A model generated the notes under the pieces. It had not been told where the DNA came from. It was given only the letters and a program-made list of their open reading frames with translations, and ran no database searches. A program made the position numbers and the translations under genes. A stretch of DNA of 26,835 nt from a bacterium (lineage in GTDB: Bacteria; Cyanobacteriota; Vampirovibrionia; Gastranaerophilales; JBAXKC01): the NCBI GenBank assembly GCA_037137535.1, contig JBAXKC010000033.1:1-26835 (forward strand), written 5' to 3'. Below are positions 861 through 23,262 of this stretch, in pieces; position 1 is the stretch's first letter; every line of letters begins with the position of its first letter.

Positions 861-1597
861 TCGTTACCACCGCCACCATATATAATATCGTTAAAATCAC
901 CGCTTGTTAAAATATCATTGCCGTTTAAACCGTAAATTACAACTTGTAATGATTTAAAGATAATCTCGTCATTTACTTCTGTACCATATATTGTTTTTAA
1001 GGTTTCTTTGACTTCATCAATTACCTTCTTTATATTGGCATCATTATAATTCTCAAATTTAATATTTGATGGATTATTTATGTTTGATGAATCAATTGCC
1101 TTACTCACGTCCTGTTGCTGATTAGGTTGTGCAGCTTGAGCAACATTTAAATTTACAATTAAATTATCTACTTTATTTTCTTTAGCATTATCTTGATTAA
1201 TCTCAGAAAGAACTTGTCTAAGCGTTGATTCTTCAGACTTATTCTCATTGATATTAAGATTAGCTTCAACTTTTAAATTTAATTCTTTGTGATCAAGAAT
1301 TTTATATGTATTTTTTGACGACTCTGATTTTTCTTTGACTTGACCTAAATTAATATCTGTTACACTACGTTTAAATGTAACATTATTAGCTATTTTCTGT
1401 TGATTACCAACAGTTTCAACAGTACTATCTGATTTATTATATTTCTTGAAGGATTTATCATCAATGCTATCTTTGCTGGGATTAGCATCAGTATGGTATA
1501 AATTCTTCTCACAAGCATTACAAGTCTTATCGTTAATTGATAGACTTGTTCCGCAAAAAGGACATATTAAATAATTAGAATTAATACCATTCGTCAA
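1..1597 (-). CDS. RTX/hemolysin-type Ca-binding repeat protein with N-terminal zinc ribbon (3' end outside window; absent from ORF track)
   Basis: Manual translation from TTG at 1597: MTNGINSNYLICPFCGTSLSINDKTCNACEKNLY... The frame is open to base 2 and has repeated GGAGADTMIGGAGDDTYTVDN / GNALNNIITGN nonapeptide units. An in-frame TGA just upstream bounds the start. Confidence 0.88.
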   Translation of the reverse strand, partial: MTNGINSNYLICPFCGTSLSINDKTCNACEKNLYHTDANPSKDSIDDKSFKKYNKSDSTVETVGNQQKIANNVTFKRSVTDINLGQVKEKSESSKNTYKILDHKELNLKVEANLNINENKSEESTLRQVLSEINQDNAKENKVDNLIVNLNVAQAAQPNQQQDVSKAIDSSNINNPSNIKFENYNDANIKKVIDEVKETLKTIYGTEVNDEIIFKSLQVVIYGLNGNDILTSGDFNDIIYGGGGNDTIDGGLGTNTLFGGAGNDTYLVNSLSDLIVEYLNEGTDLVKSVVSYILGANLENLTLLGQSNINGTGNSLDNIIIGNSGNNILSGNEGNDTLDGGAGADTMIGGAGNDAYTVDNVNDVVTELLNEGTDTVNASISYSLGNNVENLNLTGNSNIDGTGNALNNIITGNAGDNVIDGGAGADTMIGGAGDDTYTVDNVNDVVTELLNEGTDTVNSSISYSLGNNVENLNLTGNSNIDGTGNALNNIITGNSGDNVLNGGAGADTMIGGAGDDTYTVDNAGDVVTELLN

Positions 1598-5727: not shown

Positions 5728-8700
5728 ATGAAAAATAAAGATGAATTATTAAATAATCTTATAAAAAAAATTAAAACTTCTTCAAATATTGAGGAAGACT
5801 TATTAGATATAGCCAAAAAAATTTCTGTTTTATATAATGTTGAAAGAGTAATATTTAGTGAATTTCCAAATAAGTATGCTTGTTTAGACTGGAATATCAA
5901 AGTTGATTTCTTAAACTCAATAAAAATGAAGAGTATTAAATCAATTGAAATTCATCAAGAAACTAAAGAATATTTAAGCGAATCTTTAATTAACAAAAAT
6001 AAAATTATTGTATCTGATTACATTAGAGAATCAAATTTTCCTGAACAAATGAAACAAAATTATGAAGAGCTTGGAATAAAATCAATTGTATCAGTAGCGA
6101 TAAAACAAGATAATAATGTATGGGGAACAATGTCTTTAGCCTCTGCTTACAGAAGACATTGGATAAATGAAGAAATAATTGACCTTCAAAAAATAGCTAC
6201 GGAACTTTATACAGAAATACAGAAAATAAAATTAGAATTAAAATATAAAGCTTCCTTAAAAAGAGAAGAAGCTATCAGGCTGATTACTGATGCAATCGGT
6301 GAATCACTTGATACAACAGTAATATTAAATAAAATATGTAATGTTGTTTTAAACTTATTTAATGTAGACAGGGTTGCAATTGCACAATTTGCGTCACTTA
6401 ATGATTATTTGAAATGGACGTGGGTAACTGAAGCAAAGGCTGATGATCAAATTATTGATCATAGTAAAGTTGAAGTTCCTTATGAAGTAGTGGAGTATTT
6501 AGGAGAAAATGCACATAAAGAGCCCTCTAAAATAATTATTGCTGATATGGAAGATGAAGCAGTGCCAAAGTTTTATCGTGAATTTCATAAGAAGCTAGGA
6601 ACTCAATCAATATTAAATGTTCCTATAAAAAAACAGAATAATATTTGGGGACTAATGGCTCTTTTTCAAAATGATTATAAAAGGCACTGGACAGAAAAAG
6701 ATATTGCGGTGATGAATAATATTTCAGATCAAGTTTATAATTTAATTAGACAAAGTGAATTATACTCTTCTACTTTACAATATGCCGAAAGAGAAAACTT
6801 ATTAAGAATATTAATTGAATCGTTAAGAAGCACTCTTGATATAAATGAATTAAAAAGTAAAATTGTCAGCGTAATCTGCAAAGCTATTGATGCAGATAGA
6901 TGCGCAATTATGCAATATGACAATAAAAATCATGTATTTATGGATGTAGATATTTATTCTCAATATTTGTCTTCTGATGATATAGATTCTCATATCGGTT
7001 TTAATTTGGAGCAAGATGAATTTACAATTTTCAAAGAATATTTTTTAAATCAAAATAAAGAATTATTAGTTCCAAATATTGATTCTCCACCTATAAATAT
7101 TGATTTAAAAATAATAAACATATTAAAAAAATTAAAAATTAAATCAAGTTATACTACTGCAATTACTCACAGAGATGAATTTTTAGGTATTCTTTATATT
7201 AACTATATGAAAAAAGAACGAATCTTTTCAGAAGATGAAATTGATTTTTTTAGAACTTTAGCAAGTCAAGCAGCAATCTCTCTTTTTCAATCAAATCTTT
7301 TCAAGATACAAAAAGAATCTACTGAAAGAGAATCTTTCTTGAGGCAAATAATCTTATCTTCTATTTCAACTCTTGATTATGAAAACACAATAAATACAAT
7401 TGTTAATATGACAGGAGATTTTTTTAAGGCAAACAGATGCTTTTTTATAGAATATAATCAAAAAAGTAAAAAATTAACATTTCCTATTAAGAGTTACCAA
7501 GAATATACTTCATCTGATAACATTAAAAAAATCACAGGTAGAATATTTACTAATGAAGAAACCGATGTATATAAAAAATTTATAATTGAATTAAAACAAG
7601 TAGTAAATACACAAGACACAGCAAAAGCAAATTTAACTGATACAACAAAGCGAATGATTATAGATGAATATGGAATAAAATCTTATCTTGTTGCACCAAT
7701 ATTTTATCAAGATATTCCAATTGGTATTCTAACTTTAAATTATACTGATACTTATAGAAAATTTTCAGAAGATGAAGTGAATTTATTTGTTTCAGTTGCC
7801 AATCAATCAGCAATAGTATTATATCAAGCCATGTTATTTCAAGAAGTGAGAGATTCAAAAAATACTGAATCATTATTAAAAAATATTACTAATGAAATAT
7901 TAATAAGTACAACATTAAAAGAAGCAATATACAATCTAACAAAAGAAATCGGTAAATTATTTGACGTTGATAGAGTTGTGTTTCGTCTATTTGATGTTGC
8001 AACCAAAAGTTTTACTGCGATTAAAGGGGAATTTCTAAAAAATGAAAATATTCCATCCGCAAGTGATACAAATTTTTACCCTAGCCTAGTTAATGACTAT
8101 CTAAATTATACTCTATTCATAGAACATAAAAATTTTATTATAGAAAATATAGAATCTTCAAATCATCCTGATATAGTAATAGATACTTTTAAAAAGCTAA
8201 ATATAAAATCAACAATAGCGTTTCCTATTATTTATAAAAACTCACCACTAGGTGTGATATTTTTAACAAATACAGAGTCATTTAATACATTAAATGACGA
8301 AGAAGTAGAAATATTACCATACATTGCTCAACAAGTTGCTCTGGCAATACATATGTATGACCTTAATTATAAACTAACGACTGCTCTTAATAATGAAGCT
8401 AGTTTAAGAGAAATAATTATTAATATTAGAAGTGCTAAAAATCACAAAGAACTATTTAATTATTTATTATATAAATTAATTAATATATTTAATGCTCAAA
8501 GAGCCTTACATCTTCATTATGATGAAAATTATAATCTCAATTTAGTTATTGAAAGTGTTGAAGATGAAAACTTTGAATTATTAAATAAAAATATTATTTT
8601 ATCTAATGATGATCTTATGTCATTATCAAAATATGAAATTGATAATGTTGTAGCTATAGATAATATTCAAGAGATAGATAATAATGAATTAATTTATAAA

Positions 8701-9576
8701 TTCAAAAAAATGAATATTTTATCTTTTGTTATTTATCCAATCAAAAAAAAGTTATCTGCTGATACAACGACTAACTCAATTGCCCCAACAATGATATGTT
8801 CGTCAGTGGCAAGAATATGGACTTCATCGGAAATTAGCTCATTTAGGCTTATTTTAGATACTGCCTTTATTATTTATCTTGAATTAAAACAAAGAAATGA
8901 AACTGAAGAAGTTAAACAAACATTTTTAGCAACTCTAACTCATGATCTAAGAAGTCCAATTCTTTCTGAACAAAAAGCACTGGAAGTAATAATCGGAAAG
9001 AAACTTGGAACAAAATTAGAAGAATTCACAGAGTATCTTAATGATATATATAAAACTAATGAAGAATTACTAAGAATAGTAAACAATATTTTAGCTGTAT
9101 ATCATTATGAATCGGGAAAAATTGAATTAACGATAACCTCTGAAAATATCTCCAGTATAATTAAAGACTCCGTCAAATCAATGATGCATTTAGCAAAAGA
9201 TGAAAATACAGAAATAATTATGCAAATTGAACCTGACTTATTAAATGTATTAATAGATAAAAATGAAATTCATAGAGTAATAATTAATTTAATCTCAAAC
9301 GCAATTAAGCATAATAAAAAAGGTACAAATATAACTGTTTCCGCAAAAAACATTGATAATGCAGTCCAAGTTTCAATTAAAGATAATGGTGGTGGAATTC
9401 CTAGCGAAGAAAAAAACAACATATTTCAAAGATACCCTACAACAAAAAGAAAAATTGGCACAGGATTAGGGCTATATCTTTCTAAACAAATAATAGATGC
9501 TCATAAGTCGAAAATATGGTTTGAATCAGAACAAGGAAAAGGAACAACCTTTTATTTTACCATACCAATTAAATAA
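5728..9576 (+). CDS. Soluble sensor histidine kinase with about six tandem GAF domains
   Basis: Repeated (D/E/N/Q)R(V/C/A)...(G/K/N)(I/T)xS...(A/P)I GAF units, several ending in RxW/F; H-box THDLRSP; N-box NLISNAIKH; G-boxes DNGGGI and GTGLGL. No transmembrane segment seen. Confidence 0.92.
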   Translation: MKNKDELLNNLIKKIKTSSNIEEDLLDIAKKISVLYNVERVIFSEFPNKYACLDWNIKVDFLNSIKMKSIKSIEIHQETKEYLSESLINKNKIIVSDYIRESNFPEQMKQNYEELGIKSIVSVAIKQDNNVWGTMSLASAYRRHWINEEIIDLQKIATELYTEIQKIKLELKYKASLKREEAIRLITDAIGESLDTTVILNKICNVVLNLFNVDRVAIAQFASLNDYLKWTWVTEAKADDQIIDHSKVEVPYEVVEYLGENAHKEPSKIIIADMEDEAVPKFYREFHKKLGTQSILNVPIKKQNNIWGLMALFQNDYKRHWTEKDIAVMNNISDQVYNLIRQSELYSSTLQYAERENLLRILIESLRSTLDINELKSKIVSVICKAIDADRCAIMQYDNKNHVFMDVDIYSQYLSSDDIDSHIGFNLEQDEFTIFKEYFLNQNKELLVPNIDSPPINIDLKIINILKKLKIKSSYTTAITHRDEFLGILYINYMKKERIFSEDEIDFFRTLASQAAISLFQSNLFKIQKESTERESFLRQIILSSISTLDYENTINTIVNMTGDFFKANRCFFIEYNQKSKKLTFPIKSYQEYTSSDNIKKITGRIFTNEETDVYKKFIIELKQVVNTQDTAKANLTDTTKRMIIDEYGIKSYLVAPIFYQDIPIGILTLNYTDTYRKFSEDEVNLFVSVANQSAIVLYQAMLFQEVRDSKNTESLLKNITNEILISTTLKEAIYNLTKEIGKLFDVDRVVFRLFDVATKSFTAIKGEFLKNENIPSASDTNFYPSLVNDYLNYTLFIEHKNFIIENIESSNHPDIVIDTFKKLNIKSTIAFPIIYKNSPLGVIFLTNTESFNTLNDEEVEILPYIAQQVALAIHMYDLNYKLTTALNNEASLREIIINIRSAKNHKELFNYLLYKLINIFNAQRALHLHYDENYNLNLVIESVEDENFELLNKNIILSNDDLMSLSKYEIDNVVAIDNIQEIDNNELIYKFKKMNILSFVIYPIKKKLSADTTTNSIAPTMICSSVARIWTSSEISSFRLILDTAFIIYLELKQRNETEEVKQTFLATLTHDLRSPILSEQKALEVIIGKKLGTKLEEFTEYLNDIYKTNEELLRIVNNILAVYHYESGKIELTITSENISSIIKDSVKSMMHLAKDENTEIIMQIEPDLLNVLIDKNEIHRVIINLISNAIKHNKKGTNITVSAKNIDNAVQVSIKDNGGGIPSEEKNNIFQRYPTTKRKIGTGLGLYLSKQIIDAHKSKIWFESEQGKGTTFYFTIPIK

Positions 9577-12631: not shown

Positions 12632-12645
12632 AAATACATAGAAAT

Positions 12646-12736
12646 GGAGAGGTGGCCGAGTCGGTCGAAGGCGGCTTCCTGCTAAGAAGTTGTGTGGTCA
12701 AAAGCTGCACCGTGGGTTCGAATCCCACCCTCTCCG
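12646..12736 (+). tRNA. tRNA-Ser(GCT)
   Basis: GGAGAGG/CCTCTCC acceptor stem, anticodon arm GCTTC-CT GCT AA-GAAGT, long variable arm, GTTCGAATC T-loop. CCA not encoded. Confidence 0.97.
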
Positions 12737-12756
12737 TTTTTTTATTGATTATAATT

Positions 12757-12833
12757 GCGCTGGTAGCTCAGTTGGATAGAGTGTTTGGCTACGAACCAAA
12801 AGGTCGGGGGTTCGAATCCCTTCCGGCGCGCCA
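12757..12833 (+). tRNA. tRNA-Arg(ACG)
   Basis: GCGCTGG/CCGGCGC acceptor stem, anticodon arm TTTGG-CT ACG AA-CCAAA, GTTCGAATC, encoded CCA; 77 nt. Confidence 0.97.
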
Positions 12834-12876: not shown

Positions 12877-12909
12877 AGTGTAGTTTATCTGGTAATTTTG
12901 GTTGTATTG

Positions 12910-13593
12910 CTGTAATTTATCTGGCAGTTCTGGTCAAAATGCAGAAAAAATAAATAGGCTTTAATCCCTAACGTGTCTATAATACAGGCATGTTTTTTTA
13001 GTTCTGGTCAAAATGCAGAAATTGCCGATTTTCTGCATAAATGGTACTGGTCAAAATGAAGATTTTCTTTAAAGAATATGCCTTAAACCTAAACCACAAG
13101 GGAGTTACACCCTGTTTGCAAGAAAGTGGCAATTTTTTCCAACCGGGAAGAACTCGGAATTAACCTGGAAGCCTTTTTGAAAATTTATCAAATAGTTTCG
13201 GTCAAAATGAAACTTCCTTGTTTTAATCAATGTTTAAGATACTTTTAACCTCTGTAATTTATCTGGCAGTTCTGGTCAAAATGCAGAAAAAATAAATAGG
13301 CTTTAATCCCTAACGTGTCTATAATACAGGCATGTTTTTTTAGTTCTGGTCAAAATGCAGAAATTGCCGATTTTCTGCATAAATGGTACTGGTCAAAATG
13401 AAGATTTTCTTTAAAGAATATGCCTTAAACCTAAACCACAAGGGAGTTACACCCTGTTTGCAAGAAAGTGGCAATTTTTTCCAACCGGGAAGAACTCGGA
13501 ATTAACCTGGAAGCCTTTTTGAAAATTTATCAAATAGTTTCGGTCAAAATGAAACTTCCTTGTTTTAATCAATGTTTAAGATACTTTTAACCT
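12910..13593 (+). repeat. Exact 342-bp direct tandem duplication (12910-13251 and 13252-13593)
   Basis: Both copies run from CTGTAATTTATCTGGCAG to GATACTTTTAACCT and were identical on base-by-base reading. Confidence 0.95.
12932..13551 (+). repeat. Eight GGTCAAAATG motifs (four per 342-bp unit); candidate transposase-binding end sites
   Basis: Motif at 12932, 13006, 13049, 13200 and again +342. The first two extend to an identical 22-mer AGTTCTGGTCAAAATGCAGAAA. Function is inferred. Confidence 0.7.
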
Positions 13594-13758
13594 CCTTTAA
13601 AAATGTTTGTTTTGTCATTTTATTGTATTTATTGAAACTATCTTCTTCAGATTCTTCAATTAAAAATATTGAATAAAATTATTGTAAATTCAGTTCCAAT
13701 ATTCTAACTCCAAGGTAAAATGCTGTTCGGTAATAGAATAACAGGAGCTAAAAACCTT

Positions 13759-14157
13759 ATGACACAATTAAAAGAAGTATTTAAAACAAGAGAAGAAGTT
13801 TGTTTATGGCTTGAAAAACACAAAACCACACTTGAAGAAAAAGTTGGTTTTAGGATGCAGTTTACCAGCGTAGTTGAACTTGGAATCCTTGCAGAGATAG
13901 AAAATTCTAAAGATTTAAAGATTATCAGTATCCCCGATTTTGAATTATCAAATGAAACTCTTGAAACAGTAGAAGGATTTATTAGGGGTGAAATCGGTGG
14001 CGATAAGTATATAGGAACAATAATCCTCGCAGGAAGTATAAATCCAAAACTTGATAAATACTTATCGAAAATTAAATATATTTCAAAAATATTCAGAGCT
14101 TACATTTTAGAAATAGAAAACGATAAGCCTGTATTTAAAGAATATGAAGTGTTATAA
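13759..14157 (+). CDS. Hypothetical protein, possibly a degenerate restriction-endonuclease-like fold
   Basis: ORF with AGGAG RBS before ATG 13759 and its own terminator. LKEVF...WLEKH...LEEKVG weakly resembles the N-terminus of DUF4268/NucS-like nucleases. Confidence 0.65.
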   Translation: MTQLKEVFKTREEVCLWLEKHKTTLEEKVGFRMQFTSVVELGILAEIENSKDLKIISIPDFELSNETLETVEGFIRGEIGGDKYIGTIILAGSINPKLDKYLSKIKYISKIFRAYILEIENDKPVFKEYEVL

Positions 14158-14174
14158 ATTAAATAAAGACCAAT

Positions 14175-14202
14175 AGCTCGAGAGAAATCTCGGGCTTTTT
14201 TT
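14175..14202 (+). terminator. Intrinsic terminator
   Basis: AGCTCGAGA-gaaa-TCTCGGGCT followed by a T run. Confidence 0.85.
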
Positions 14203-14295
14203 ATTGATTCAAAACGGACACAAAAGGCGGAACATATCACCCATTCTGCGAAATACCCTTTATTATGTCAATGACGCATTAAACGAGGTGTTTTT

Positions 14296-16296
14296 ATGAA
14301 GGAAGCCTGGCTTGACCTGAAAACGGTAGCCGAGATAAAGGAAATAACCACAAGAGCCCTGCGATTAGCCATTCAAAAGGGTAAGTACAAAACAAGAGAA
14401 ACAATAACTCAAGGAGGAAAAAGCTTTGAAATTCTTTTATCTTCCCTTGAGCCAAAAGTTCAAGATGTGTATAAAAATACATATTATCAGGAAGTCTTAG
14501 AATTAGAAAAACAAATAATTCCCATAACCAAACTTGAACCAAACAACGAAAACTTTATTCCTGATAGTGCTAAAAAGATTGCCCTTGCAAGATTAGACCT
14601 TCTTAATGAATGGCAAAGTTTTAGAATAAAATACAAGCCTAAACAAGCAGGCGATAAGCTTTTTCTTGATTTATACAACTCGGGTGAATATCTAAAAACC
14701 ATATATGAGCTTCTCGGAAGAACTTCGAGAGGCTCTTTGTTAAGGTGGAATAAACTTTACACGGATTATGAAAGCTGGGAAGCCCTTGCTCCTCAGTATA
14801 AATACTCAGGGTTTCAAGAATACCGAACAGTATTAGCAGAAGAACAGATTGCAATATTTTTAAAACTGCTCCTGCATCCAAATCAGTTCAATATCGGTAA
14901 AGCAATAAAACTTTCTACTCACATACTTGAAAGACGAGGCTCTGAGAATATTCCAAAGCCCATCACATTCAGGCGTTATGCAGAATGGTTTAAAAAGAAT
15001 AATTACGATAAATGGATTTTAATGAGAGAAGGAGAAAAAAGTTTAGTCGATAAAATTTCTCCATATATAAAGAGGGATATTTCAAAACTTGCTGTCGGAG
15101 ATGTAATTATAGCAGACGGACACGTTTTAAACTTCCTTTTAATTAACCCGTTTACGGGTAAACCAGTCAGAGCAACACTTGTCGGTTTCCTTGACTGGAA
15201 ATCAGGCTACTTGGTCGGGTATGAAATAATGATGCAGGAAAATACACAATGCATCGCTGCCGCACTAAGAATGGCAATAATAACGATGGATATGCTTCCG
15301 AAAATCGTTTATCAGGATAACGGCAGGGCTTTTAAAGCTAAATATTTCAGCCAATCCGCTGACTTTAGCGAAGCAGGTTTTAACGGAATATATGAAAACT
15401 TAGGAATAAAGCCCGTTTACGCTAGACCCTACAATGCTAAAGCAAAAGTCATCGAAAGGTTTTTTAAAGAATTTCAAGAAGAGTTTGAAAAACTTGTTCC
15501 AAGCTACAGCGGAAGCTCAATAGAAATGAAACCAGCTCATTTAAAAAGAAACGAAAAATTCCATAAAGAGCTTCATAACAAGGTAAATAAAGGATACGTT
15601 CCTACAATAGAAGAAGCAATTAAATTAATAAATGCGTGGCTTGATTTCAGACACTCTCAACCCTGCCCGAATGATAAAAGCAGAAGTATTAAAGATGTTT
15701 TTGACAGCAGGGAAAAACAAAATATCGATAAAAATAAACTTGATGACCTGATGTTGGCTTATGAAGTCAAAACAATTCACCGTAACGGAATAAGGTTCTT
15801 AAATTTTGATTATTACCACGATAACCTTTATGGACTAAGAGATAGAGTAATGATTAAATACAGCCTGTTTGACCTGACTAAAATCAAGGTTTATTCAACA
15901 AAAGGCGAATATATTTGCACCGCAAAAAGAATAACAGGAACTCACCCTATGGCTTATCATCTCGGTGAGATTAAAGATATGGAAGACTTTAAACAGAAAA
16001 TTCAAAAACAAAAGAAATTTAAGAATAAAACTTTAAAAGCCGTTAAAAAATATCTGCCGAAAGAGGATATTAAATTCCTTGAAGTACAGATGGACAGTGA
16101 ATATTTGGAATCAACACCAGATGTGGAAATAAAAAACGAACCACTAATGATAGAAACTCAAATAAAACCTGTATTTATGAATAATTATGAAAGGTATGAA
16201 TGGTTTATAAAAAATGGATGCTCAACGTCTGAAGACAGGCAATGGCTAGCTAATTACAAACAAAGTGATGAGTATAAATTAATTTATGAGGATTAA
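14296..16296 (+). CDS. Mu/TnsB-like DDE transposase 1
   Basis: N-terminal HTH; catalytic IIADGH, YQDNGRAF, KVIERFF; Mu-transposase C-terminal NGIRF...Y...V.IKY; GAGGTG RBS. Confidence 0.92.
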   Translation: MKEAWLDLKTVAEIKEITTRALRLAIQKGKYKTRETITQGGKSFEILLSSLEPKVQDVYKNTYYQEVLELEKQIIPITKLEPNNENFIPDSAKKIALARLDLLNEWQSFRIKYKPKQAGDKLFLDLYNSGEYLKTIYELLGRTSRGSLLRWNKLYTDYESWEALAPQYKYSGFQEYRTVLAEEQIAIFLKLLLHPNQFNIGKAIKLSTHILERRGSENIPKPITFRRYAEWFKKNNYDKWILMREGEKSLVDKISPYIKRDISKLAVGDVIIADGHVLNFLLINPFTGKPVRATLVGFLDWKSGYLVGYEIMMQENTQCIAAALRMAIITMDMLPKIVYQDNGRAFKAKYFSQSADFSEAGFNGIYENLGIKPVYARPYNAKAKVIERFFKEFQEEFEKLVPSYSGSSIEMKPAHLKRNEKFHKELHNKVNKGYVPTIEEAIKLINAWLDFRHSQPCPNDKSRSIKDVFDSREKQNIDKNKLDDLMLAYEVKTIHRNGIRFLNFDYYHDNLYGLRDRVMIKYSLFDLTKIKVYSTKGEYICTAKRITGTHPMAYHLGEIKDMEDFKQKIQKQKKFKNKTLKAVKKYLPKEDIKFLEVQMDSEYLESTPDVEIKNEPLMIETQIKPVFMNNYERYEWFIKNGCSTSEDRQWLANYKQSDEYKLIYED

Positions 16297-16299
16297 AAA

Positions 16300-17007
16300 A
16301 TGAAAAAAACATTTGTAAGAACTCAAAACGTGAAAAACTTTATTTCACTGATGAATTCTATTCAAAACAAACCAGATGGTGTGCCACGAATGGCTTTAGT
16401 CTACGGAGAGCCAGGGCTTGGTAAATCAAGAACAGCTCTGTGGTGGGCTGTTAAAAACGATGCGGTGTATTTAAGAAGTTCAAATATGATGTCAGGAAGA
16501 TGGTTTTTAGAGGAATTAATAGAAGAATTGGGTGAAAGCCCCCTGCATAAATCATCTGATATATTTAATCAGGTTGTAAATCAGCTAATAGATTGCCCAC
16601 GAACAATTATTGTTGATGAAATAGATTATCTGCTTGCTGATTCAAAGGCGATTGAAACATTGAGAGATATTTACGACAGAACAAATGTACCGATTATTTT
16701 AATAGGAATGGGCAAAGCAAATAAAAAGTTTTCAAGATTTAGACATATTTATGACAGATTTTCAGAAATTCTAAAGTTTGAAAGCTTTGATTTTAATGAA
16801 GTCAGCAAGATTATTGAAGAATTGTCAGAAGCCCAAATGGAGGAATCGGCAGTAAAACTGATATTTAATCAGGCAAACAGATTCAGGCAAATTGTAAGCG
16901 TTATATCTAAAGCTGAAAAACTCTCTAAATCAAACTCTAATCTGCTAATAACAGCGGAAATACTTCAATCGGCGATTAAAGATATTATCGAGGATAAAAA
17001 GTTATGA
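16300..17007 (+). CDS. AAA+ ATPase 1 (TnsC/MuB-like, AAA_22), no N-terminal HTH
   Basis: Walker A GEPGLGKS, Walker B IIVDEID, LRDIYD...PIILIGM; 3 bp after transposase 1. Confidence 0.92.
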   Translation: MKKTFVRTQNVKNFISLMNSIQNKPDGVPRMALVYGEPGLGKSRTALWWAVKNDAVYLRSSNMMSGRWFLEELIEELGESPLHKSSDIFNQVVNQLIDCPRTIIVDEIDYLLADSKAIETLRDIYDRTNVPIILIGMGKANKKFSRFRHIYDRFSEILKFESFDFNEVSKIIEELSEAQMEESAVKLIFNQANRFRQIVSVISKAEKLSKSNSNLLITAEILQSAIKDIIEDKKL

Positions 17008-17873
17008 AAAATCAAATATTAAAAGCGGCAAAGGGCTTGCGGACATTTACCATTGAAGATTTAGAACTTGTAACAGGTTTTGAAGAAAGCGAGATACTTG
17101 AAGTTATTCAAGAAAATAATCTTAAATTTAATAACGGAGTTTATTCTTTTCAAGATTTTAAAGAGCAAAAAAATAAAAAGAAAACAGTAAAAAAAGTTGG
17201 CAAAACAATTCTTTTTAAAACCTTTGCCGATAAATATATTAAAAAACTAACCTGTAAAGAATCGACTAAACAAAGCTATGAGATATATTTAAGACTTCAC
17301 CTCTTACCAATATTCGCCCAAAAAAGAATAATAGATATTGATAAAAATGATATTGAAACTTTTAAAAAGTTAAAACTTAAAGAAGGGTTGTCTAATAAAA
17401 GTATTAATAACTTTATTACTCTGCTTTACGGCATATTTGAATGTGCTTTAAATGAAGATTTATTCTTGAAAAATCCTTGTCAGAAAATAGAAAAACTTAA
17501 AACAGAATCTAAAAAACAAAACATATCGCAGGTACAACTGAATAATCTTCTGAACCTGGCTAAAGAAAAGGATTTTTCTTTTTATCTTATGCTTAAAACA
17601 GCAGTTGAAACAGGTTTATCAAGAGGACAGGTTCTTAGTTTAAAGTGGTGCGATATTGATGGCTCTAAAGTTCTTGATAAAACTATTTCTTTAGATTTAA
17701 TGTGTGAATTAAACAAGTGGCATAAAATTTGTCCGATATATTCTAAAAATCTGATTTTTCCTAACAAGAACGGAAACGAAATTCATGCGGATAATATGAT
17801 AAAACGAAAATTCAAACCCCTTGTTAAAGCTGCAGGGCTTGAATCTTTACGGTTTTTAGATTTAAAACTTTAA
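17004..17873 (+). CDS. Catalytically inactive tyrosine-recombinase-like protein with N-terminal winged-helix-like extension
   Basis: Integrase core-binding domain (STKQSYEIYLRLHLLP...LSNKSINN...NPC). Box I reads TGLSRGQ and box II LRFLDLK, then stop; no catalytic Tyr. ATGA overlap with ATPase 1. Confidence 0.85.
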   Translation: MKNQILKAAKGLRTFTIEDLELVTGFEESEILEVIQENNLKFNNGVYSFQDFKEQKNKKKTVKKVGKTILFKTFADKYIKKLTCKESTKQSYEIYLRLHLLPIFAQKRIIDIDKNDIETFKKLKLKEGLSNKSINNFITLLYGIFECALNEDLFLKNPCQKIEKLKTESKKQNISQVQLNNLLNLAKEKDFSFYLMLKTAVETGLSRGQVLSLKWCDIDGSKVLDKTISLDLMCELNKWHKICPIYSKNLIFPNKNGNEIHADNMIKRKFKPLVKAAGLESLRFLDLKL

Positions 17874-17878
17874 TGTTT

Positions 17879-18574
17879 TTACTCCTGCGGAAGTTTTTTC
17901 CCTTGCCAAACAACTTTGCCGATAACTGCAATACCTGATTCTTCATGAATATCAACTGTAAAAGTGCTGTATTCTGGGTTATCGCTCTTAACTTGTAATT
18001 TATTGCCCGGTCTAAGCTCAAGTCTTTTTACAACAAGCGTATCGTCAAATCTTACAACGAATATTCCATCTTTAATAACTATATTAGAGGTGTCAACCAT
18101 AATGAGATCACCATCTTTAATAGTTGGTTCCATCGATTCGCCTTTTACTTCAAGTATTATAAGGCTATTTTTAGGAGCAAGAATATTTTTATTAAACCAT
18201 TGTTTTTCAAATGGATAATGACCGATTACGGCTTCATTATCTATTATGCAGCCCGAACCTGCGGCAGTTTTTCCGTAATAAATAGGAATATATGTAATAT
18301 TTTCAGGATAAACATTTATTCCTGAATCGTCAGCTAAGAACATAGTACCTTTTCCAGCCACTATATATTCAAGATTTGCTGCTAAATTCTCGTACAATAA
18401 AGTTAAATATTCAACAGATGCTTGTCTTTCGCCCCTTTCATAATTACTTATGGTTTTAGGAGCGATATTTATCATTTTGCTTAATTCATCAATAGTAAGA
18501 GCTGATTGAAGTCTAATATTCCTCAATCTTAGTCCTATTTCTTTTAATACTGTTTGATTTAACTCTTTGCCCAT
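17879..18574 (-). CDS. Prophage repressor, XRE HTH + S24 autopeptidase (CI/LexA-like)
   Basis: IGLRLRNIR...TISNYERGER HTH; AAG cleavage site; VKGESMEPTI (Ser) and VVKRL (Lys). Confidence 0.93.
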   Translation of the reverse strand: MGKELNQTVLKEIGLRLRNIRLQSALTIDELSKMINIAPKTISNYERGERQASVEYLTLLYENLAANLEYIVAGKGTMFLADDSGINVYPENITYIPIYYGKTAAGSGCIIDNEAVIGHYPFEKQWFNKNILAPKNSLIILEVKGESMEPTIKDGDLIMVDTSNIVIKDGIFVVRFDDTLVVKRLELRPGNKLQVKSDNPEYSTFTVDIHEESGIAVIGKVVWQGKKLPQE

Positions 18575-18592
18575 ATTTTACTTTCTTAATGA

Positions 18593-18674
18593 AATTTAAC
18601 CATATGTTCTTATTTATTGACAATAAGCCCAAATGGTAATAATATAATTTTATTAATACCCGAATGGTAATAAT
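18593..18674. promoter_or_regulatory. Lysis/lysogeny switch: early promoter with 2-3 operator-like repeats
   Basis: TTGACA (18617-18622), 17 bp, TAATAT (18640-18645). CCC(A/G)AATGGTAATAAT at 18628 and 18659; weaker inverted copy at 18593-18615. Confidence 0.7.
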
Positions 18675-18704
18675 GAGTAGCTGTGTATAAAGAATATACC
18701 ATAA

Positions 18705-18893
18705 ATGAGCAAAATAACTAGAGTCAAATGGTTCAAAATAAAACTTTTATGTCGAAAACTTAGCATTGAAGAAGTAGCTAAGGAGCTTAATATTACAAAA
18801 AAAGAATTAATTTTACTCATTAAAGATAAAAAACAAGACTCATATTTTACCAAATGGGTAGTAGAAAACCTGGGCAAGCCTTACTGGCTGTAA
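18705..18893 (+). CDS. Small HTH regulator (Ner/Cro-like)
   Basis: 62 aa with LSIEEVAKELNITKKELILLI helix-turn-helix; divergent from the repressor and first gene of the early operon. Confidence 0.75.
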   Translation: MSKITRVKWFKIKLLCRKLSIEEVAKELNITKKELILLIKDKKQDSYFTKWVVENLGKPYWL

Positions 18894-18909: not shown

Positions 18910-20895
18910 ATGAGCGGAGTGGAAATAATAAAGAATAATCCTGTGTGGATTGATGAAAATCAAGCCTCCTCTTTGCTTGGACTAAAAATTGAAACTCTAA
19001 GAAAAAACTGTGCTACAGGTAAATATATTTTTGAAAAAATGAAAAATAATGGTGAAAAAGTTGAGTATAGAATACTTTTAAGCTGTTTACCCGAACGTTT
19101 TCAAAATAAATATCATCAATTTAATTCCACGAATGAAACAACTTTTGACCTCGATATAGATATCATGCTTTATAATAAAGCTCCTAATTGGGCTAAAAAA
19201 CAAGCAGATAAATATATTGTAATTCTTACTAATTCCAGAGGATTAAAAGGCAGAGAATTAAGAAAATTTGTTGAAGAATGGAATTGCCAAAATCCTGATT
19301 TTAAAACTTCTTATTCCGCTATTAATGAATCTCGCTTAAGGTACGAGAACGGCGGAACCTCTGCTCTGCTTGCTCAATATGGTAAAACAGCAGGAGCATC
19401 AAAAATAGAGGATAAATATTTTGAATATTTTAAAAACCTTTATCTTGTAGAAGGGGCTCCCTCTGTTTACTCCTGCTGGCTTATAACTCTTGGCTATGCA
19501 ATGAGAGAAGAAGGACTTACAAAAGAACAATTCCCTAAACATTTAAGTTTTAAAAGAAGATTAGAACGTGAAATTCCTACATCTTCAATATATTTAGCAA
19601 GATACGGATACTCAAAATGGAATAAAAAGTTCGCAAACTATGTTGAAAGAGACTATTCTGCCATTAGATGTGGCTCTGTTTGGGTAGCTGACCATGCTCA
19701 AATAGACATAGCCTGTGAAAACCTTGATGGAAAAGTTAGTTATCCCTGGGTTACTGCTTGGCGTTGTTTTAAATCAGGCAAATGGCTTGGCTGGATATTA
19801 CAGCCTAATAATCCAAACTCAGACCATATATTTCAATCATTCTATTATTCGGCAAGTGAATACGGAATTCCTGACGACGTGATTATAGATAATGGCAGAG
19901 ATTTTAGAGCAAAAGATTTCGCCGGCGGAAGAAAATATATTAAAATAAATGCGGACGAACCCTCAACAACTGCAATGCTTGGAAAACTGGGAGTTATTCC
20001 ACATTTTGCACTTCCGTATAATGCTCAAACTAAACCTATTGAAAGAGATTTCCTTAAAATTAAAGAGCTTTTATCAAAGCACGCTGTCGGATATAGAGGC
20101 GGAAACGTTACAGAACGCCCTGAAAAACTTAAAAAAGAAATAGCACAGGGCAAAATATTAAAATTTGAAGAATTTAAAGAAATCTTTGACGATTTTATTG
20201 TCAATGTATTTAATAAAATGAATTCTAACGGTAAAAATCACAAAGGCAAATCCCCTGATGAACTCTTTGCCCTTGAATTTACCGAAAAAAGAGTTGTTTC
20301 AAAAGATGCTTTAATCCTTTTCTGTAAAAGAACTTCAAGAGAATTAACCATTACTCAAAACGGAGTAAGAGATTCCGAACTTGAAATTACATACTGGGCT
20401 GATTGGATGCTCGGTGTTAAAGGCGAAAAAGCATATTTAAGACGTGATGCAAAAAATTATAACGAAGCCTGGATATTTAAAGCTTCTAATGATGAATTAT
20501 TAGGAACGGCATATGTAAAAGAACTTGCTCCTGCATTAGCTAAAGAGCCTGTTTCAAAGGACAGGTTCAAAGAATTTATCTGCGATAAAAAACGTGGAAG
20601 AAAAATTGAAAAAGCTTACTCTCAAAATGAAGAAGTTGAGCTTAATGAAAAAATACTCAATTATAAAACTGTTTTAGGCGATAAAGAATATCTTCTGAAT
20701 CCTAAAATAAATAAAATAGCCAATACTGCTATGGATAAAGCAGTCAGAAAACAAAAAAACAACGAGAAAATAGGGACTCACGATTTATCAATATTCCTTG
20801 AAGAACCGCAAAAAGAACAAAAGCTTTATTTGTTTGAAAGCGACAGGGAAATTGAAAAAGCAGAGCAGGAGTATTTAACAAATTATGGATATTAG
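18910..20895 (+). CDS. MuA-like DDE transposase 2
   Basis: N-terminal HTH; WVADHAQID, IIDNGRDF, KPIERDF triad; canonical c-ner-A-B position. Confidence 0.92.
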   Translation: MSGVEIIKNNPVWIDENQASSLLGLKIETLRKNCATGKYIFEKMKNNGEKVEYRILLSCLPERFQNKYHQFNSTNETTFDLDIDIMLYNKAPNWAKKQADKYIVILTNSRGLKGRELRKFVEEWNCQNPDFKTSYSAINESRLRYENGGTSALLAQYGKTAGASKIEDKYFEYFKNLYLVEGAPSVYSCWLITLGYAMREEGLTKEQFPKHLSFKRRLEREIPTSSIYLARYGYSKWNKKFANYVERDYSAIRCGSVWVADHAQIDIACENLDGKVSYPWVTAWRCFKSGKWLGWILQPNNPNSDHIFQSFYYSASEYGIPDDVIIDNGRDFRAKDFAGGRKYIKINADEPSTTAMLGKLGVIPHFALPYNAQTKPIERDFLKIKELLSKHAVGYRGGNVTERPEKLKKEIAQGKILKFEEFKEIFDDFIVNVFNKMNSNGKNHKGKSPDELFALEFTEKRVVSKDALILFCKRTSRELTITQNGVRDSELEITYWADWMLGVKGEKAYLRRDAKNYNEAWIFKASNDELLGTAYVKELAPALAKEPVSKDRFKEFICDKKRGRKIEKAYSQNEEVELNEKILNYKTVLGDKEYLLNPKINKIANTAMDKAVRKQKNNEKIGTHDLSIFLEEPQKEQKLYLFESDREIEKAEQEYLTNYGY

Positions 20896-21760
20896 AGACG
20901 AATTAAAAATCCTTATGGCTGAAAAGAAATACAGCTTCCAAGCTGTTGCCCGTTCAACCGCCTTATCCCCAACCACTCTTAATATGTGGGTGAATGGCAG
21001 CTATAATGGGAACTCTGAGAAAATAGCAGATATTGTAAATAACTTTATTACTAGAGAAAAAGAAAAATCTCACAAAAAAACAATCCCGTTTGTTGAAACA
21101 TCAATTGCAATGCGAGTTTTTGAGATTGCAAGAATGTGTCATATAAACAGTGAAATAGGTGTTTGCTACGGCTCGGCAGGACTCGGTAAAACCGTTGCAG
21201 CTAAAGAATATACAAAGAATTATCATGATTCAATTCTTATTGAAACTGACCCGGGGTTTAACACTAAAACACTACTCATAGAACTTCATAAAAGGCTTGG
21301 GCTGTCGGCTAAAGGCAATATTTATACTATGACTGATGAAATAATACAAAAAGTCCAAAACTCAGGCAGACTAGTTATTATTGATGAAGCTGAAAACCTT
21401 CCGCATAAAGCTCTTGAGCTCGTAAGAAGAATTCACGATAAAACAGAAATCGGAATCTTGTTAATAGGAATGCCTGCTCTTGTTGAAAACTTAAGAGGCG
21501 AGAAAAACCAGTATGAACAGCTTTATTCAAGAGTTGGTGTTTCTAAAAAACTAGAAAAATTAAATATTAATGATGTAGGGCTTATTCTTGAAACCTTAAA
21601 ACAAGAGAAAAACCTTGCTCTGCCTTATCTTGAACACTCAAAAGGAAATACAAGAGTATTGTCAAAACTGATAAAAAGAGCACCAAGAGTTGCACAGATA
21701 AATAACACAACTGTTTCAACTGCTGTAATAGAAAAAACGTCAAGAATGTTAATAGTATAG
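20885..21760 (+). CDS. MuB-like transposition ATPase 2 with N-terminal HTH
   Basis: SFQAVARSTALSPTTLNMWVNGSY HTH; Walker A GSAGLGKT; Walker B IIDEAE; QLYSRVG arginine finger. Confidence 0.93.
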   Translation: MDIRDELKILMAEKKYSFQAVARSTALSPTTLNMWVNGSYNGNSEKIADIVNNFITREKEKSHKKTIPFVETSIAMRVFEIARMCHINSEIGVCYGSAGLGKTVAAKEYTKNYHDSILIETDPGFNTKTLLIELHKRLGLSAKGNIYTMTDEIIQKVQNSGRLVIIDEAENLPHKALELVRRIHDKTEIGILLIGMPALVENLRGEKNQYEQLYSRVGVSKKLEKLNINDVGLILETLKQEKNLALPYLEHSKGNTRVLSKLIKRAPRVAQINNTTVSTAVIEKTSRMLIV

Positions 21761-21767
21761 GTGATTT

Positions 21768-21899
21768 ATGAGGAATTTTGAAAAAATCGGAATGCTGATT
21801 CTAATAGGTTTGATATTATTCACTTTTGGAATTCAGATTGGTATAAAACATGGTCGTGACTTAGAAAAACAAGAAATTATGGAGGTTTATGGCAACTAG
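21768..21899 (+). CDS. Small single-TM protein (43 aa; not in ORF track)
   Basis: MRNFEKIGMLILIGLILFTFGIQIGIKHGRDLEKQEIMEVYGN; AGGTG RBS; fills the MuB-gemA gap and overlaps the gemA start. Confidence 0.7.
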   Translation: MRNFEKIGMLILIGLILFTFGIQIGIKHGRDLEKQEIMEVYGN

Positions 21900-22317
21900 A
21901 TATGAAATACAAAAGATTCACATGCTTAAAAATGCTTTGAATCTTGATGATGATCTTTACAGAGAAATATTAAACAATTATGGTGCCGAATCCTGTAAAG
22001 AAATACCGCCTCATCTAACAGATGAATTCATCAAATATCTCGAACAAATGGCAATAGAATCAGGCAAATGGAACTTAAAACCAAAAAAGTTTGATGAACT
22101 TGCAAACAGACCTGATATGGCATCACCTAAACAATTAAGGTTAATCGACTATCTATGGAAAATAATATGTGAAAGAAGGGAGAAAGATAATAACTCATTA
22201 AGAAAATTTCTTTATGTAAAATTCAAAGTAAGTGACTTAAGGTTTATCAGCCGAAAGACAGCAAATAAAGTAATAAACGCACTTAAAAATATTGATAGTA
22301 ATTATATTAACGTCTAA
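21889..22317 (+). CDS. gemA: GemA / Mu gp16-family protein (DUF1018)
   Basis: IQKIH..KNALNLDDDLYREIL...SCKE...KQLRLIDYLW...LRKF...ANKVINALK; GGAGG RBS. Confidence 0.85.
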   Translation: MATRYEIQKIHMLKNALNLDDDLYREILNNYGAESCKEIPPHLTDEFIKYLEQMAIESGKWNLKPKKFDELANRPDMASPKQLRLIDYLWKIICERREKDNNSLRKFLYVKFKVSDLRFISRKTANKVINALKNIDSNYINV

Positions 22318-22333
22318 AAAAAGGAGAAACCCA

Positions 22334-22558
22334 ATGGAAATTAAAGACAGAATTACAGGAATTATTTCAAATCAAATTAATGATATTAATGACGAGTTAT
22401 CAGTAACTAAAATCAAGTATGCAGATTTATGTTTAAAAGATGAAGATTGGCATATTAAAGTTAAATTTGAGAAAAAATGTAGAATTCTTGAAGGGCAAAT
22501 AGAAGTATTAGAGCGTATGGCTCAAAATATTGAAGATATATTTGTTCTGGCAGCGTAA
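22334..22558 (+). CDS. Hypothetical helical phage protein (74 aa)
   Basis: AGGAG RBS before ATG 22334 (MEIKDRITG...); lies in the early operon. Confidence 0.7.
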   Translation: MEIKDRITGIISNQINDINDELSVTKIKYADLCLKDEDWHIKVKFEKKCRILEGQIEVLERMAQNIEDIFVLAA

Positions 22559-22559
22559 A

Positions 22560-22611
22560 AGTCGAAACGGGATTTATCCCGTCATATCGTGATGCGGTAT
22601 CTGATGAGACT
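22560..22611 (+). ncRNA. Type II hammerhead ribozyme
   Basis: AGUC (stem II)-GAAA-CGGGA uuua UCCCG (stem III)-UC cleavage site-AUAUCG ugaug CGGUAU (stem I)-CUGAUGA-GACU (stem II). All core nucleotides present; intergenic. Confidence 0.92.
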
Positions 22612-22625
22612 GAGAGGAATCAATA

Positions 22626-22901
22626 ATGAGCGATAAAATATGGCTCGATGACCTTGAAAAGAAACATATTCCTAATGAAGAATTAAGACTTGTTGCTGAA
22701 TACTGCGGATTGAAAGTAGTAGCAGAACTTCTTAAATCTATGCCTGGAGTTGTAATCTATGTCCCAAATCGAGATATTGTTGAATTAAGAGATCAGTATA
22801 TCAGGCAAAAATATGATGGGACAAAAATATCAATGATGGAGCTCGCAAGAGAATTAAGACTATCTGAAAAAACTATTTCTAGCATAATAAAAAAAAAGTA
22901 A
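22626..22901 (+). CDS. mor: Mor/C-family transcription activator
   Basis: LLKSMPGVVIYVP...RDQYIRQKYDG...ELARELRLSEKTISSII; downstream of gemA as in transposable phages. Confidence 0.85.
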   Translation: MSDKIWLDDLEKKHIPNEELRLVAEYCGLKVVAELLKSMPGVVIYVPNRDIVELRDQYIRQKYDGTKISMMELARELRLSEKTISSIIKKK

Positions 22902-22916
22902 CCACTCCAACCTCTT

Positions 22917-22944
22917 ATCAAGGCATCTGCCTTGATTTTTTTTT
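22917..22944 (+). terminator. Intrinsic terminator after mor
   Basis: ATCAAGGC-atct-GCCTTGAT followed by T8. Confidence 0.85.
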
Positions 22945-22986
22945 GATATACTAATTTTGTTTGAATATTAAATAAGGGAATTTCTA

Positions 22987-23262
22987 ATGAATAAAGAAGA
23001 ATTAGTACAAAAAGTAGCAGCTACAACTAACAGCACCCAAAAAGAAGCAGCTGAAATTATCACTGCAACAGTAAATGCTATTACTGAAGCAGTTGCAGCA
23101 GGCGAAAAAGTTACATTAGTCGGATTCGGAACTTTTGAAGCTAAAAAACGTGCTGCTAGAAATGGACGTAATCCTCAAACAGGTGAAACCATTGAAATAT
23201 CAGCTAAAACCGTACCAACCTTTACTGCAGGCAAAGCGTTTAAAGATAGTACAAATAAATAG
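22987..23262 (+). CDS. hup: HU-family DNA-binding protein (prophage-borne)
   Basis: MNKEELV...GEKVTLVGFGTFE...RNGRNPQTGETIEI...P.FTAGKAFKD. Confidence 0.95.
   Translation: MNKEELVQKVAATTNSTQKEAAEIITATVNAITEAVAAGEKVTLVGFGTFEAKKRAARNGRNPQTGETIEISAKTVPTFTAGKAFKDSTNK

Follow-up and report, generated by a model that had tools for sequence, protein, structure and literature searches.

A Mu-type transposase and ATPase operon beside tRNA genes encodes a winged-helix protein with an inactive integrase module, a candidate TniQ-free target selector

A three-gene operon encoding a DDE transposase (transposase 1), an AAA+ ATPase (ATPase 1) and a third protein, referred to here as X, was analysed on contig JBAXKC010000033.1 of the Gastranaerophilales assembly GCA_037137535.1. 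The window under study is the entire 26,835-bp contig, which is part of a 2.95-Mb draft genome. The operon lies downstream of a pair of tRNA genes, behind the repeated end of a mobile element, and the features on which the analysis centers are as follows.

12645..12737, plus strand: tRNA-Ser(GCT), first of the tRNA pair upstream of the element (ARAGORN)
12757..12833, plus strand: tRNA-Arg(ACG), upstream of the operon and in the same orientation (ARAGORN)
12881..12911, plus strand: outermost element terminus (TGTAGTTTATCTGG...), aligning with the terminus of a second copy on contig C1 of the same genome
12910..13593, plus strand: transposase-proximal element end, two perfect 342-bp tandem copies (12910-13251 and 13252-13593; from the sequence)
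13720..14157, plus strand: orf145, a small gene between element end and transposase 1 (open reading frame (ORF) call, no Pfam match)
14296..16296, plus strand: transposase 1, 666 amino acids (aa), a MuA/TnsB-type DDE enzyme (Pfam rve and Mu-transpos_C)
16300..17007, plus strand: ATPase 1, 235 aa, MuB/TnsC-like AAA+, without an N-terminal helix-turn-helix (HTH) domain (Pfam AAA_22 and TniB)
17004..17873, plus strand: X, the third gene, 289 aa (Pfam, model)
17004..17153, plus strand: X residues 1-50, winged helix, kept in all 41 aligned X proteins (alignment, model)
17193..17453, plus strand: X residues 64-150, integrase core-binding (SAM-like) domain (Pfam; PDB 2kkp, E 4.4e-5; model)
17529..17870, plus strand: X residues 176-289, partial catalytic domain (Pfam, alignments, model, Foldseek)

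The three genes are tightly coupled, and the 3-bp gap and ATGA overlap described in the initial annotation of this locus are exact. The transposase 1 stop codon (16294-16296) is separated by three bases (aaa) from the ATPase 1 start codon, ATG at 16300, and the ATPase 1 stop codon overlaps the X start codon as ATGA at 17004-17007. The X stop codon (17871-17873) lies 5 bp from the stop of a convergent repressor gene at 17879. Transposase 1 matches Pfam rve (E 1.9e-6, below the curated cut-off) and Mu-transpos_C (E 4.4e-15), as a TnsB-type DDE enzyme does. A 77% identical orthologue of transposase 1 matches phrog_310 at 1.5e-94; a PDB sequence search with transposase 1 itself gave no match. ATPase 1, which adjoins the transposase and carries AAA_22 and TniB matches, has the features of a TnsC-type AAA+ adaptor. 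Its closest solved relative is MuB (8xvb, E 6e-5), followed by VchTnsC (a weak E of 0.002), and its orthologue matches phrog_296. The Pfam scan finds no HTH in ATPase 1, which bears out the earlier remark that the N-terminal HTH of MuB is missing from it; a second ATPase of the window, ATPase 2 (20885-21760), has an N-terminal HTH_26 match. The Pfam scan of 24 window ORFs gave no match to a TniQ/TnsD-family selector, in X or elsewhere. Nor does a TnsA endonuclease occur among these ORFs, the window element being incomplete and a gene beyond 26835 being possible. NCBIfam gave nothing specific for any of the proteins. The small gene orf145 has a 75% identical copy on contig C70 of the same genome and was not found in 43 other loci.

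The AlphaFold model of X (mean predicted local distance difference test score, pLDDT, of 90.3) comprises a winged helix (residues 1-50, pLDDT 88-94), a disordered linker (residues 53-62), a core-binding domain (residues 64-150) and a partial catalytic domain (residues 176-289). Pfam places Phage_int_SAM_3 at residues 71-120 and Phage_integrase at residues 174-281, the latter only to position 126 of the 172-position profile. The top Foldseek matches are lambda Int (1z1b, E 4e-8) and Tn1549 Int (6en0), with E values from 4e-8 to 6e-7 and a template modelling (TM) score of ~0.6. The KGLRTFTIEDL segment, noted at first as an extra helical stretch at the N-terminus, is real and folds as part of the winged helix in the X model. 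In the model of a sister protein, VIA-align returned a Z score of 9.6 for the winged helix, with a root-mean-square deviation of 1.3 Å over 56 residues.

Canonical tyrosine recombinases carry the motifs TGxRxxE (box I) and HxLR (box II). Alignment with relatives shows that the X segment that we take to be box I reads TGLSRGQ, and X is devoid of ~16 residues at the position of the β-hairpin of longer relatives. Its C-terminus reads ...LRFLDLKL, where the full-length relatives have F-x-x-L-R-(H/D/N), presumably box II, and the chain stops before the segment with His/Trp and Tyr, which is absent. The catalytic R-K-H-R-H/W-Y set of active tyrosine recombinases, at the positions that we assign to it, is not present in X. 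Pfam, the alignments and the model agree with the earlier description of the third gene product as an integrase fold that retains an intact core-binding domain and has lost its active-site elements. From N- to C-terminus, X consists of a winged helix, an integrase core-binding domain and a catalytic domain that is cut short and has no active-site residues.

Homologs of X were drawn from a search of 5.8 billion proteins. Seven of them (293-298 aa, 50-61% identity) have the same stop position, a TGLSRGQ-like box I and the hairpin deletion, and an eighth homolog of the same truncated form, L006, is available with its DNA. Since homologs with identities of 50-61% all stop where X does and lack the hairpin as well, the truncation of X is not recent decay; there are no frameshifts, and the conservation of the catalytic loss, which the initial annotation had singled out for checking, is upheld. 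Within the truncated clade, which includes P0002-P0007 and L006, identity amounts to 55.7% in the partial catalytic domain, 59.1% in the core-binding domain and 44.4% in the linker. Constraint on X was gauged by these per-domain identities; L006, the sole homolog with DNA, is 54% identical in protein, so that synonymous sites are saturated. Among more distant relatives (a group at 30-37% identity), P0010, P0011 and P0035 are cut at the same place. Others are full-length and keep the box II Arg and the Tyr, having lost the first box II His and, for the most part, the Arg at what we take to be the canonical box I position. The catalytic domain therefore appears to have been eroded repeatedly, with the N-terminal and core-binding domains retained. 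Taken together, the alignments support the view that X is a conserved, selected protein rather than a decayed gene. Scans of genome contigs and metagenomes yielded only L001, L002 and L006 as close relatives of X; L007 and L008, from the same scans, proved to be ordinary distant integrases, and a scan of viral contigs found no relatives of X. The public record titles of L001 and L002 name Gammaproteobacteria and Bacteroidales bins, and a genome search puts the L001 genome in the order of the window's genome; labels or bins may be wrong.

The family was surveyed in 41 genomes of the same order with a cut-off of E ≤ 1e-20 for ATPase 1 homologs. The ATPase 1 gene is present in 26 of the 41 genomes, often in several copies; 40 of the 48 listed places were taken, and 44 ATPase loci were analysed, two of which duplicate earlier loci. 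Of the 44 loci, 43 have transposase 1 directly upstream of ATPase 1, 42 have a third gene beginning at the ATPase stop, and the order transposase-ATPase-X, whose retention had been proposed as a check, is kept in 43. All third proteins open with the same domain of ~50 residues (consensus ILKLAKRLxKFTLDEI), which is followed by one of several modules, giving these types of X.

Core-binding domain only: 169-230 aa
Core-binding and truncated catalytic domain: window X and L043
Full integrase fold: 331-364 aa
MuA Iβ/γ-like (end-binding) domain alone: 243-255 aa
MuA Iβ/γ-like domain followed by an integrase fold: 534-591 aa
Type F, a 170-residue domain without a recognised fold: 219-240 aa

The MuA-like domain of some X proteins matches residues ~64-239 of transposase 2, the second transposase of the window. 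For the 170-aa module of type F, Foldseek returned no match at E ≤ 0.001, and the VIA-align rows cover the winged helix only (residues 1-63). Judged from these domain assignments, X appears across the family as a conserved winged helix joined to interchangeable DNA-binding modules. In five family members without a Mu part (L040-L044), a small divergent gene lies just upstream of transposase 1 and is HTH_3-positive in L042, L043 and L044, which would give a repressor/A/B/X layout resembling the Mu early region.

A complex of X residues 1-62 (41-row alignment) with ATPase 1 (38-row alignment) was modelled, as the initial annotation had suggested for the N-terminus of X, and the result supports binding. 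The interaction prediction score from aligned errors (ipSAE) is 0.63 for the winged helix and ATPase 1 against 0.00 for the best control. The 0.63 mark was reached by 116 of 157 solved complexes and by 2 of 215 mismatched pairs, a calibration that is only approximate for the present model, which used its own alignments. At least 92% of the contacts agree among three complex runs, and the partner pLDDT is at least 75. The modelled interface falls on conserved residues, namely 44-51 (TALWWA) and 57-59 of the ATPase and 4-13 and 18-25 of X. According to the model, the N-terminal winged helix of X probably docks on ATPase 1.

The location of the elements was assessed at 36 loci with a full 1.5 kb upstream, by counting tRNA genes whose 3′ end lies within 1.5 kb of the transposase start. 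A same-strand tRNA is found within this distance at 16 of the 36 loci and an opposite-strand tRNA at none. The chance rate is ~0.009 per locus and the binomial probability 2e-23, with the proviso that related loci are not independent. A tmRNA gene lies ~1.1 kb upstream of L032 in the same orientation, and seven further loci have same-orientation tRNAs 2-5 kb upstream (both from Rfam). These data support the observation that the elements are placed end-first, in a single orientation and immediately downstream of tRNA genes, at a frequency far above chance. The neighbors comprise ten different tRNA genes besides the tmRNA, and the proposed homing to tRNA-Arg is not supported. The gap between the tRNA 3′ end and the element terminus, read by eye at eight loci, is as follows.

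Window (outermost terminus): 47 bp
L045: 49 bp
L056: 52 bp
L050: 55 bp
L049: 72 bp
L046: 100 bp
L005: 103 bp
L001: 180 bp

The insertion a fixed distance downstream of the tRNA gene, likewise proposed at the outset, is contradicted by this range of 47-180 bp.

The transposase-proximal end of the window element is a repeat of direct sites. Each 342-bp tandem copy begins TGTAATTTATCTGGCAG and bears four direct sites of ~22 bp (CAGTTCTGGTCAAAATGMAGA); eight exact occurrences of GGTCAAAATG lie on the plus strand, and the total of nine matches was reached by none of 100 shuffles. A 31-bp partial third terminus (12881-12911) precedes the tandem copies. In sequencing run X1 a collapsed 343-bp unitig has approximately twice the neighboring depth, which agrees with two copies of the 342-bp repeat. 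The tandem ends could stem from repeated arrival at the site, from duplication or from an assembly effect. In the same run, unitig depth is ~53-76 at 16075-18700 (ATPase 1, X and the repressor gene) versus 29.8 at 13768-15873 (transposase 1); this roughly doubled depth is consistent with a second near-identical copy of that part in the sample.

Further copies are present in the genome of the window. Contig C1 holds a second copy of the element end downstream of tRNA-Ile/tRNA-Ala. A degenerate copy (~72% identity) of the window tRNA-Arg and its downstream flank is found on the same contig at ~511-650 (reverse strand), beside tRNA-Ala/tRNA-Ile at 684-855 and between the tRNA pair and the element end. 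This tRNA-Arg retains its 5′ half without the T-arm; possible origins are transfer of the flank along with the element and decay of a tRNA-Arg native to the site. Contig C70 (4,762 bp) holds a third copy, with a transposase that is 86% identical and an orf145 that is 75% identical. Its truncated left end is directly abutted by the right end (...GATAGTTTACA) of another copy, an arrangement that suggests a tandem array. The abutting ends on contig C70 look as if elements had come to a single address more than once. The assembled contigs of the sequencing runs showed neither an empty site nor an excision joint, two listed joints with sides of 21-25 letters having been set aside.

Downstream of X, the window continues into a Mu-like prophage, inside which the contig ends at 26835.

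17879..18574, minus strand: CI/LexA-type repressor (HTH_3 and Peptidase_S24), start of the Mu-like early region (Pfam)
18705..18893, plus strand: small Ner-like gene (by position only; without a family match)
18910..20895, plus strand: transposase 2, MuA-like, 661 aa (Pfam DDE_2 and HTH_Tnp_Mu_2)
20885..21760, plus strand: ATPase 2, MuB-like, 291 aa, with the N-terminal HTH (Pfam)
21889..23262, plus strand: GemA, Mor and HU-like genes of the Mu-like phage (Pfam)
24159..26692, minus strand: phage late genes including an M15 peptidase and a tail-fibre protein (Pfam)

Transposase 2 shares 24% identity with transposase 1. The extent of the mobile unit is seen in genome G017 (the same genome as G001), which has two copies with proteins 75-83% identical to those of the window and in the same order. 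Copy C1 of G017 spans 60,766 bp, and has the termini TATAGTC... and ...ACTTTATA. Both ends bear 22-bp sites, four direct ones at the transposase end and two at the opposite one. The copy is flanked by a perfect 5-bp duplication (GGTGT) and lies downstream of tRNA-Met. Copy C2 spans ~59.3 kb, is flanked by a perfect 5-bp duplication (GGACT) and lies downstream of tRNA-Arg(TCT); the terminal inverted repeats of the G017 copies are imperfect. The duplications, together with the strand bias at the 36 loci, amount to insertion in one specific orientation, accompanied by a 5-bp duplication, downstream of a conserved gene.

Of the 67 ORFs of copy C1, 65 were annotated with PHROG, which reveals the operon, a repressor, a MuA/MuB pair and a complete myovirus set (sheath, tape measure, baseplate, portal, terminase and major head). 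The gene set of a Mu-like transposable phage (MuA/MuB, a repressor/ner/A/B/gemA/mor early region, head and tail) is thus found when the window is taken with the complete set of the orthologous 60.8-kb element. Past the phage genes, ~24 kb of cargo (~7.3-31.6 kb of G017:C1, or 36.6-60.9 kb in element coordinates) contains large helicase, methyltransferase and AddAB-like nuclease genes and probably represents defence systems. By PHROG family, transposase 1 groups with MuA (phrog_310) and ATPase 1 with MuB (phrog_296). Homologs of the second MuA (MuA-2), collected at E ≤ 1e-40, occur at 16 places in 11 of the 41 genomes and correspond to 15 genes, one of which is split in two. Twelve of these follow an ATPase 1 gene at a distance of no more than ~5 kb, L064 and L065 are not so placed, and one, on a 1.6-kb contig, is not assignable. 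Since 12 of the 15 MuA-2 genes lie near an ATPase 1 gene, the two-machine arrangement is old and stable rather than an accident of the contig. Elsewhere in the window, three 243-bp tandem repeats with 76-87% identity lie within an open-ended gene for an RTX calcium-binding-repeat protein (1-634 and 2-1597, minus strand), and a histidine kinase of 1,282 aa with five GAF domains is encoded at 5728-9576.

On balance, X probably, though by no means surely, serves a Mu/Tn7-type transposition machine as a TniQ-free target selector or adaptor. Docking on the MuB/TnsC-like ATPase 1 would be the task of its conserved N-terminal winged helix, and the rest of the protein would act as an exchangeable DNA-binding module, here the core-binding domain with a dead catalytic remnant. 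This module would mark DNA at tRNA and tmRNA genes, most plausibly at the shared T-arm and 3′ region. The ATPase loaded beside X would activate the DDE transposase, which would insert the element with its transposase-proximal end toward the tRNA, ~50-100 bp or more downstream, with a 5-bp duplication. In this lineage the mobile unit would also hold a complete Mu-like phage with an A/B pair of its own. We infer that X binds target DNA, that the T-arm is what is read and that transposase 1, not transposase 2, makes the insertions. The TniQ-free selector for tRNA targets envisaged in the initial annotation survives in part: the conserved dead X, the invariant gene order, the predicted ATPase docking and the tRNA bias speak for it, and the restriction to tRNA-Arg and the fixed distance do not hold. 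That such a selector inserts a Mu-like prophage is similarly favored by the whole prophage lying inside a unit flanked by 5-bp duplications in a relative, again without the fixed offset.

Target choice in Tn7-type elements is thought to run through TniQ/TnsD, alone or with partners (TnsF, Cas effectors), and Mu-type machines are regarded as untargeted. The present elements share with phage Mu the MuA/MuB PHROG families, MuB as the nearest solved relative of ATPase 1 and the 5-bp duplication. They also resemble Mu in the layout of the ends: at one end a terminal site stands apart from the inner sites, and at the opposite end the sites are adjacent. Phage Mu differs in having one A/B pair, no third selector gene and near-random targets, in contrast to the two A/B pairs and the tRNA-proximal location seen here, and its MuB has the N-terminal HTH that ATPase 1 lacks.

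According to Faure et al. (2023, PMC10293859), TnsF is an inactivated tyrosine recombinase that selects the Tn6022 target comM together with a short TniQ. It is described there as a 498-aa protein with N-terminal zinc fingers and a tandem CB1-CB2 (CB, core-binding), whose C-terminal region contacts TniQ. As far as this description goes, TnsF and X are alike in a tyrosine-recombinase fold without a catalytic pocket, in core-binding-type domains, in being encoded with a TnsB/TnsC-type machine and in the choice of insertion site, shown for the one and proposed for the other. The same description sets X apart: X has 289 aa, an N-terminal winged helix and one CB domain instead of zinc fingers and CB1-CB2. 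There is no TniQ in its operon, its N-terminus is predicted to contact the ATPase directly, and its flank is a tRNA locus (tRNA-Ser/tRNA-Arg in the window) rather than comM. The Tn7 clade is characterised by TniQ/TnsD in that paper (PMC10293859). X would work like TnsF in principle, yet fails the architectural definition of TnsF, and its machine is nearer to Mu than to Tn7. The TnsD/TniQ homing systems (CRISPR-associated transposons, CAST, I-B2 and I-D) also resemble the present elements in that they insert downstream of a tRNA in one orientation, the transposase-proximal end toward the target, in the AAA+ adaptor between selector and transposase, and in the 5-bp duplication. They differ in using a TniQ-family protein, one defined tRNA and a fixed offset, TnsD homing CAST I-D 30-33 nt downstream of a tRNA (30-33 nt in CyCAST; PMC10293859), whereas the present elements use no TniQ, many tRNAs and a variable offset.

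Several observations weigh against X as the reader of tRNA genes. The 47-180 bp spacing is unlike the precise spacing of Tn7 and CAST elements. L049 and L056, with X proteins 96% and ATPases 99% identical, sit at tRNA-Ser(CGA) and tRNA-Met, respectively, so that X is not the reader of a single specific tRNA. Elements beside tRNAs include some with integrase-type X, one with an X of the MuA-domain type (L030) and some with the type of unknown domain. In G017 both copies are tRNA-adjacent, the third gene of C2 having no integrase part and that of C1 the core-binding domain only. Because elements whose X has no integrase part are also tRNA-adjacent, the integrase fold is not necessarily the tRNA reader. 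L065 (G005:C280, 9950-14817) is a Mu-like prophage whose MuA and MuB are each 43% identical to the second pair of the window and which has no transposase 1/ATPase 1/X operon; a hidden Markov model search found no X-like winged helix at this locus. Its start lies 60-100 bp past the 3′ side of a tRNA-Met of the same orientation, and the GCCTCTAT...ATAGAGGC motif of operon-bearing elements recurs in its end region. At 20 of the 36 loci no tRNA lies within 1.5 kb, and this holds for all five loci whose X combines a MuA domain with an integrase (0/5 with a tRNA). Defence genes, HTH regulators, another integrase or host genes lie upstream of the tRNA-less loci, content that agrees with nesting in islands and proves nothing. 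The element ends bear a single family of sites and do not indicate which of the two transposases binds them. For the window copy no right end was found as an inverted end-site cluster in the window or elsewhere in the genome, apart from the ends of the other copies on contigs C1 and C70. The varied tRNAs, the tmRNA and the operon-less L065 imply that the reader must recognise a feature that tRNAs and tmRNA share. The obvious candidate for this feature is the T-arm, and its reader need not be the integrase-derived module.

The same observations are those expected if X were an accessory or regulatory factor of the transpososome, such as an end-binding assembly factor, a transposition inhibitor or an ATPase-tethered immunity factor, with the tRNA preference arising from the ATPase, the transposase or a host feature of tRNA loci. 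We regard this alternative as somewhat unlikely. In its favor are the near-identical X proteins at different tRNAs, the occurrence of all X types at tRNAs, the tRNA-adjacent Mu-like prophage without X, the variable spacing, and the likeness of a domain in some X proteins to the end-binding Iβ/γ region of MuA. On the other side, the sole X-less example could have lost its operon, and tRNA genes are common attachment sites for members of the family from which the integrase-derived modules stem. An end-binding factor should moreover co-vary with the ends, whereas several unrelated DNA-binding modules on one conserved ATPase-docking domain form the pattern of Tn7 target selectors (Faure et al. 2023, PMC10293859).

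It is quite unlikely that X descends from a tyrosine recombinase resolving the cointegrates of a TnsA-less replicative transposon, a function that the full-length relatives would still have and of which the window copy would be a non-functional remnant. Cointegrates would be expected because no TnsA-like gene is present among the scanned ORFs, and the longer relatives P0008, P0009, P0038, L025, L026 and L032 keep the box II Arg and the C-terminal Tyr. However, even the full-length relatives are without the first box II His and most are without the Arg at the canonical box I position, as we assign these sites. The truncated form is conserved in length and sequence at 50-61% identity without frameshifts, core-binding-only and non-integrase forms of X are common, and the predicted ATPase-binding domain would be needless in a resolvase.

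That the operon and the Mu-like phage are unrelated neighbors, the phage having inserted beside an older transposon or into its integrase gene and truncated it, is very improbable: X and the repressor gene do lie 5 bp apart and X does end exactly at box II, but the same stop position recurs in L006, where a Mor-like gene and a nuclease follow instead of a repressor or MuA, 12 loci have X, repressor, MuA and MuB in this order at MuA identities between 83% and 52%, no second internal pair of ends for the Mu part was found in the 60.8-kb element (blastn-short; 14-mer, two-mismatch comparison), and the 5-bp duplications enclose the whole unit, so that truncation of an active integrase by a Mu insertion was rejected.

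In a full-text literature search, no paper turned up that describes a Mu-type operon with a winged-helix/core-binding third gene or Mu-like elements directed to tRNAs; the family may already be listed in the supplements of Faure et al. (2023), where a TnsC tree marks genes that share an operon with tnsC/MuB as well as loci that have a second tnsB-tnsC pair. A more far-reaching proposal is put forward tentatively as a possibility. A Mu-like phage lineage may run two machines, a MuA/MuB pair for lytic replicative spread and a transposase/ATPase/winged-helix adaptor that parks the ~60-kb genome at a harmless spot downstream of any tRNA or tmRNA gene via the shared T-arm DNA. If so, this would be a case of generic stable-RNA-gene targeting by a bacterial DDE element and of a mutator phage that no longer mutates its host, and the adaptor family would constitute a TniQ-independent, modular means of programming MuB/TnsC-type ATPases.

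The family suggests a third arrangement for target choice, in which a small winged helix links DNA-binding modules straight to a MuB/TnsC-like ATPase. The modules are interchangeable, several having been taken over from integrases, and this arrangement is present in a large fraction of one bacterial order. If the proposed mechanism holds, it would account for the way in which very large elements, whole Mu-like phages and defence islands among them, reach safe sites. It would also mean that recombinases have repeatedly been converted into readers of DNA addresses, and that the operon represents a compact, TniQ-free, protein-guided insertion system with a naturally modular specificity domain.

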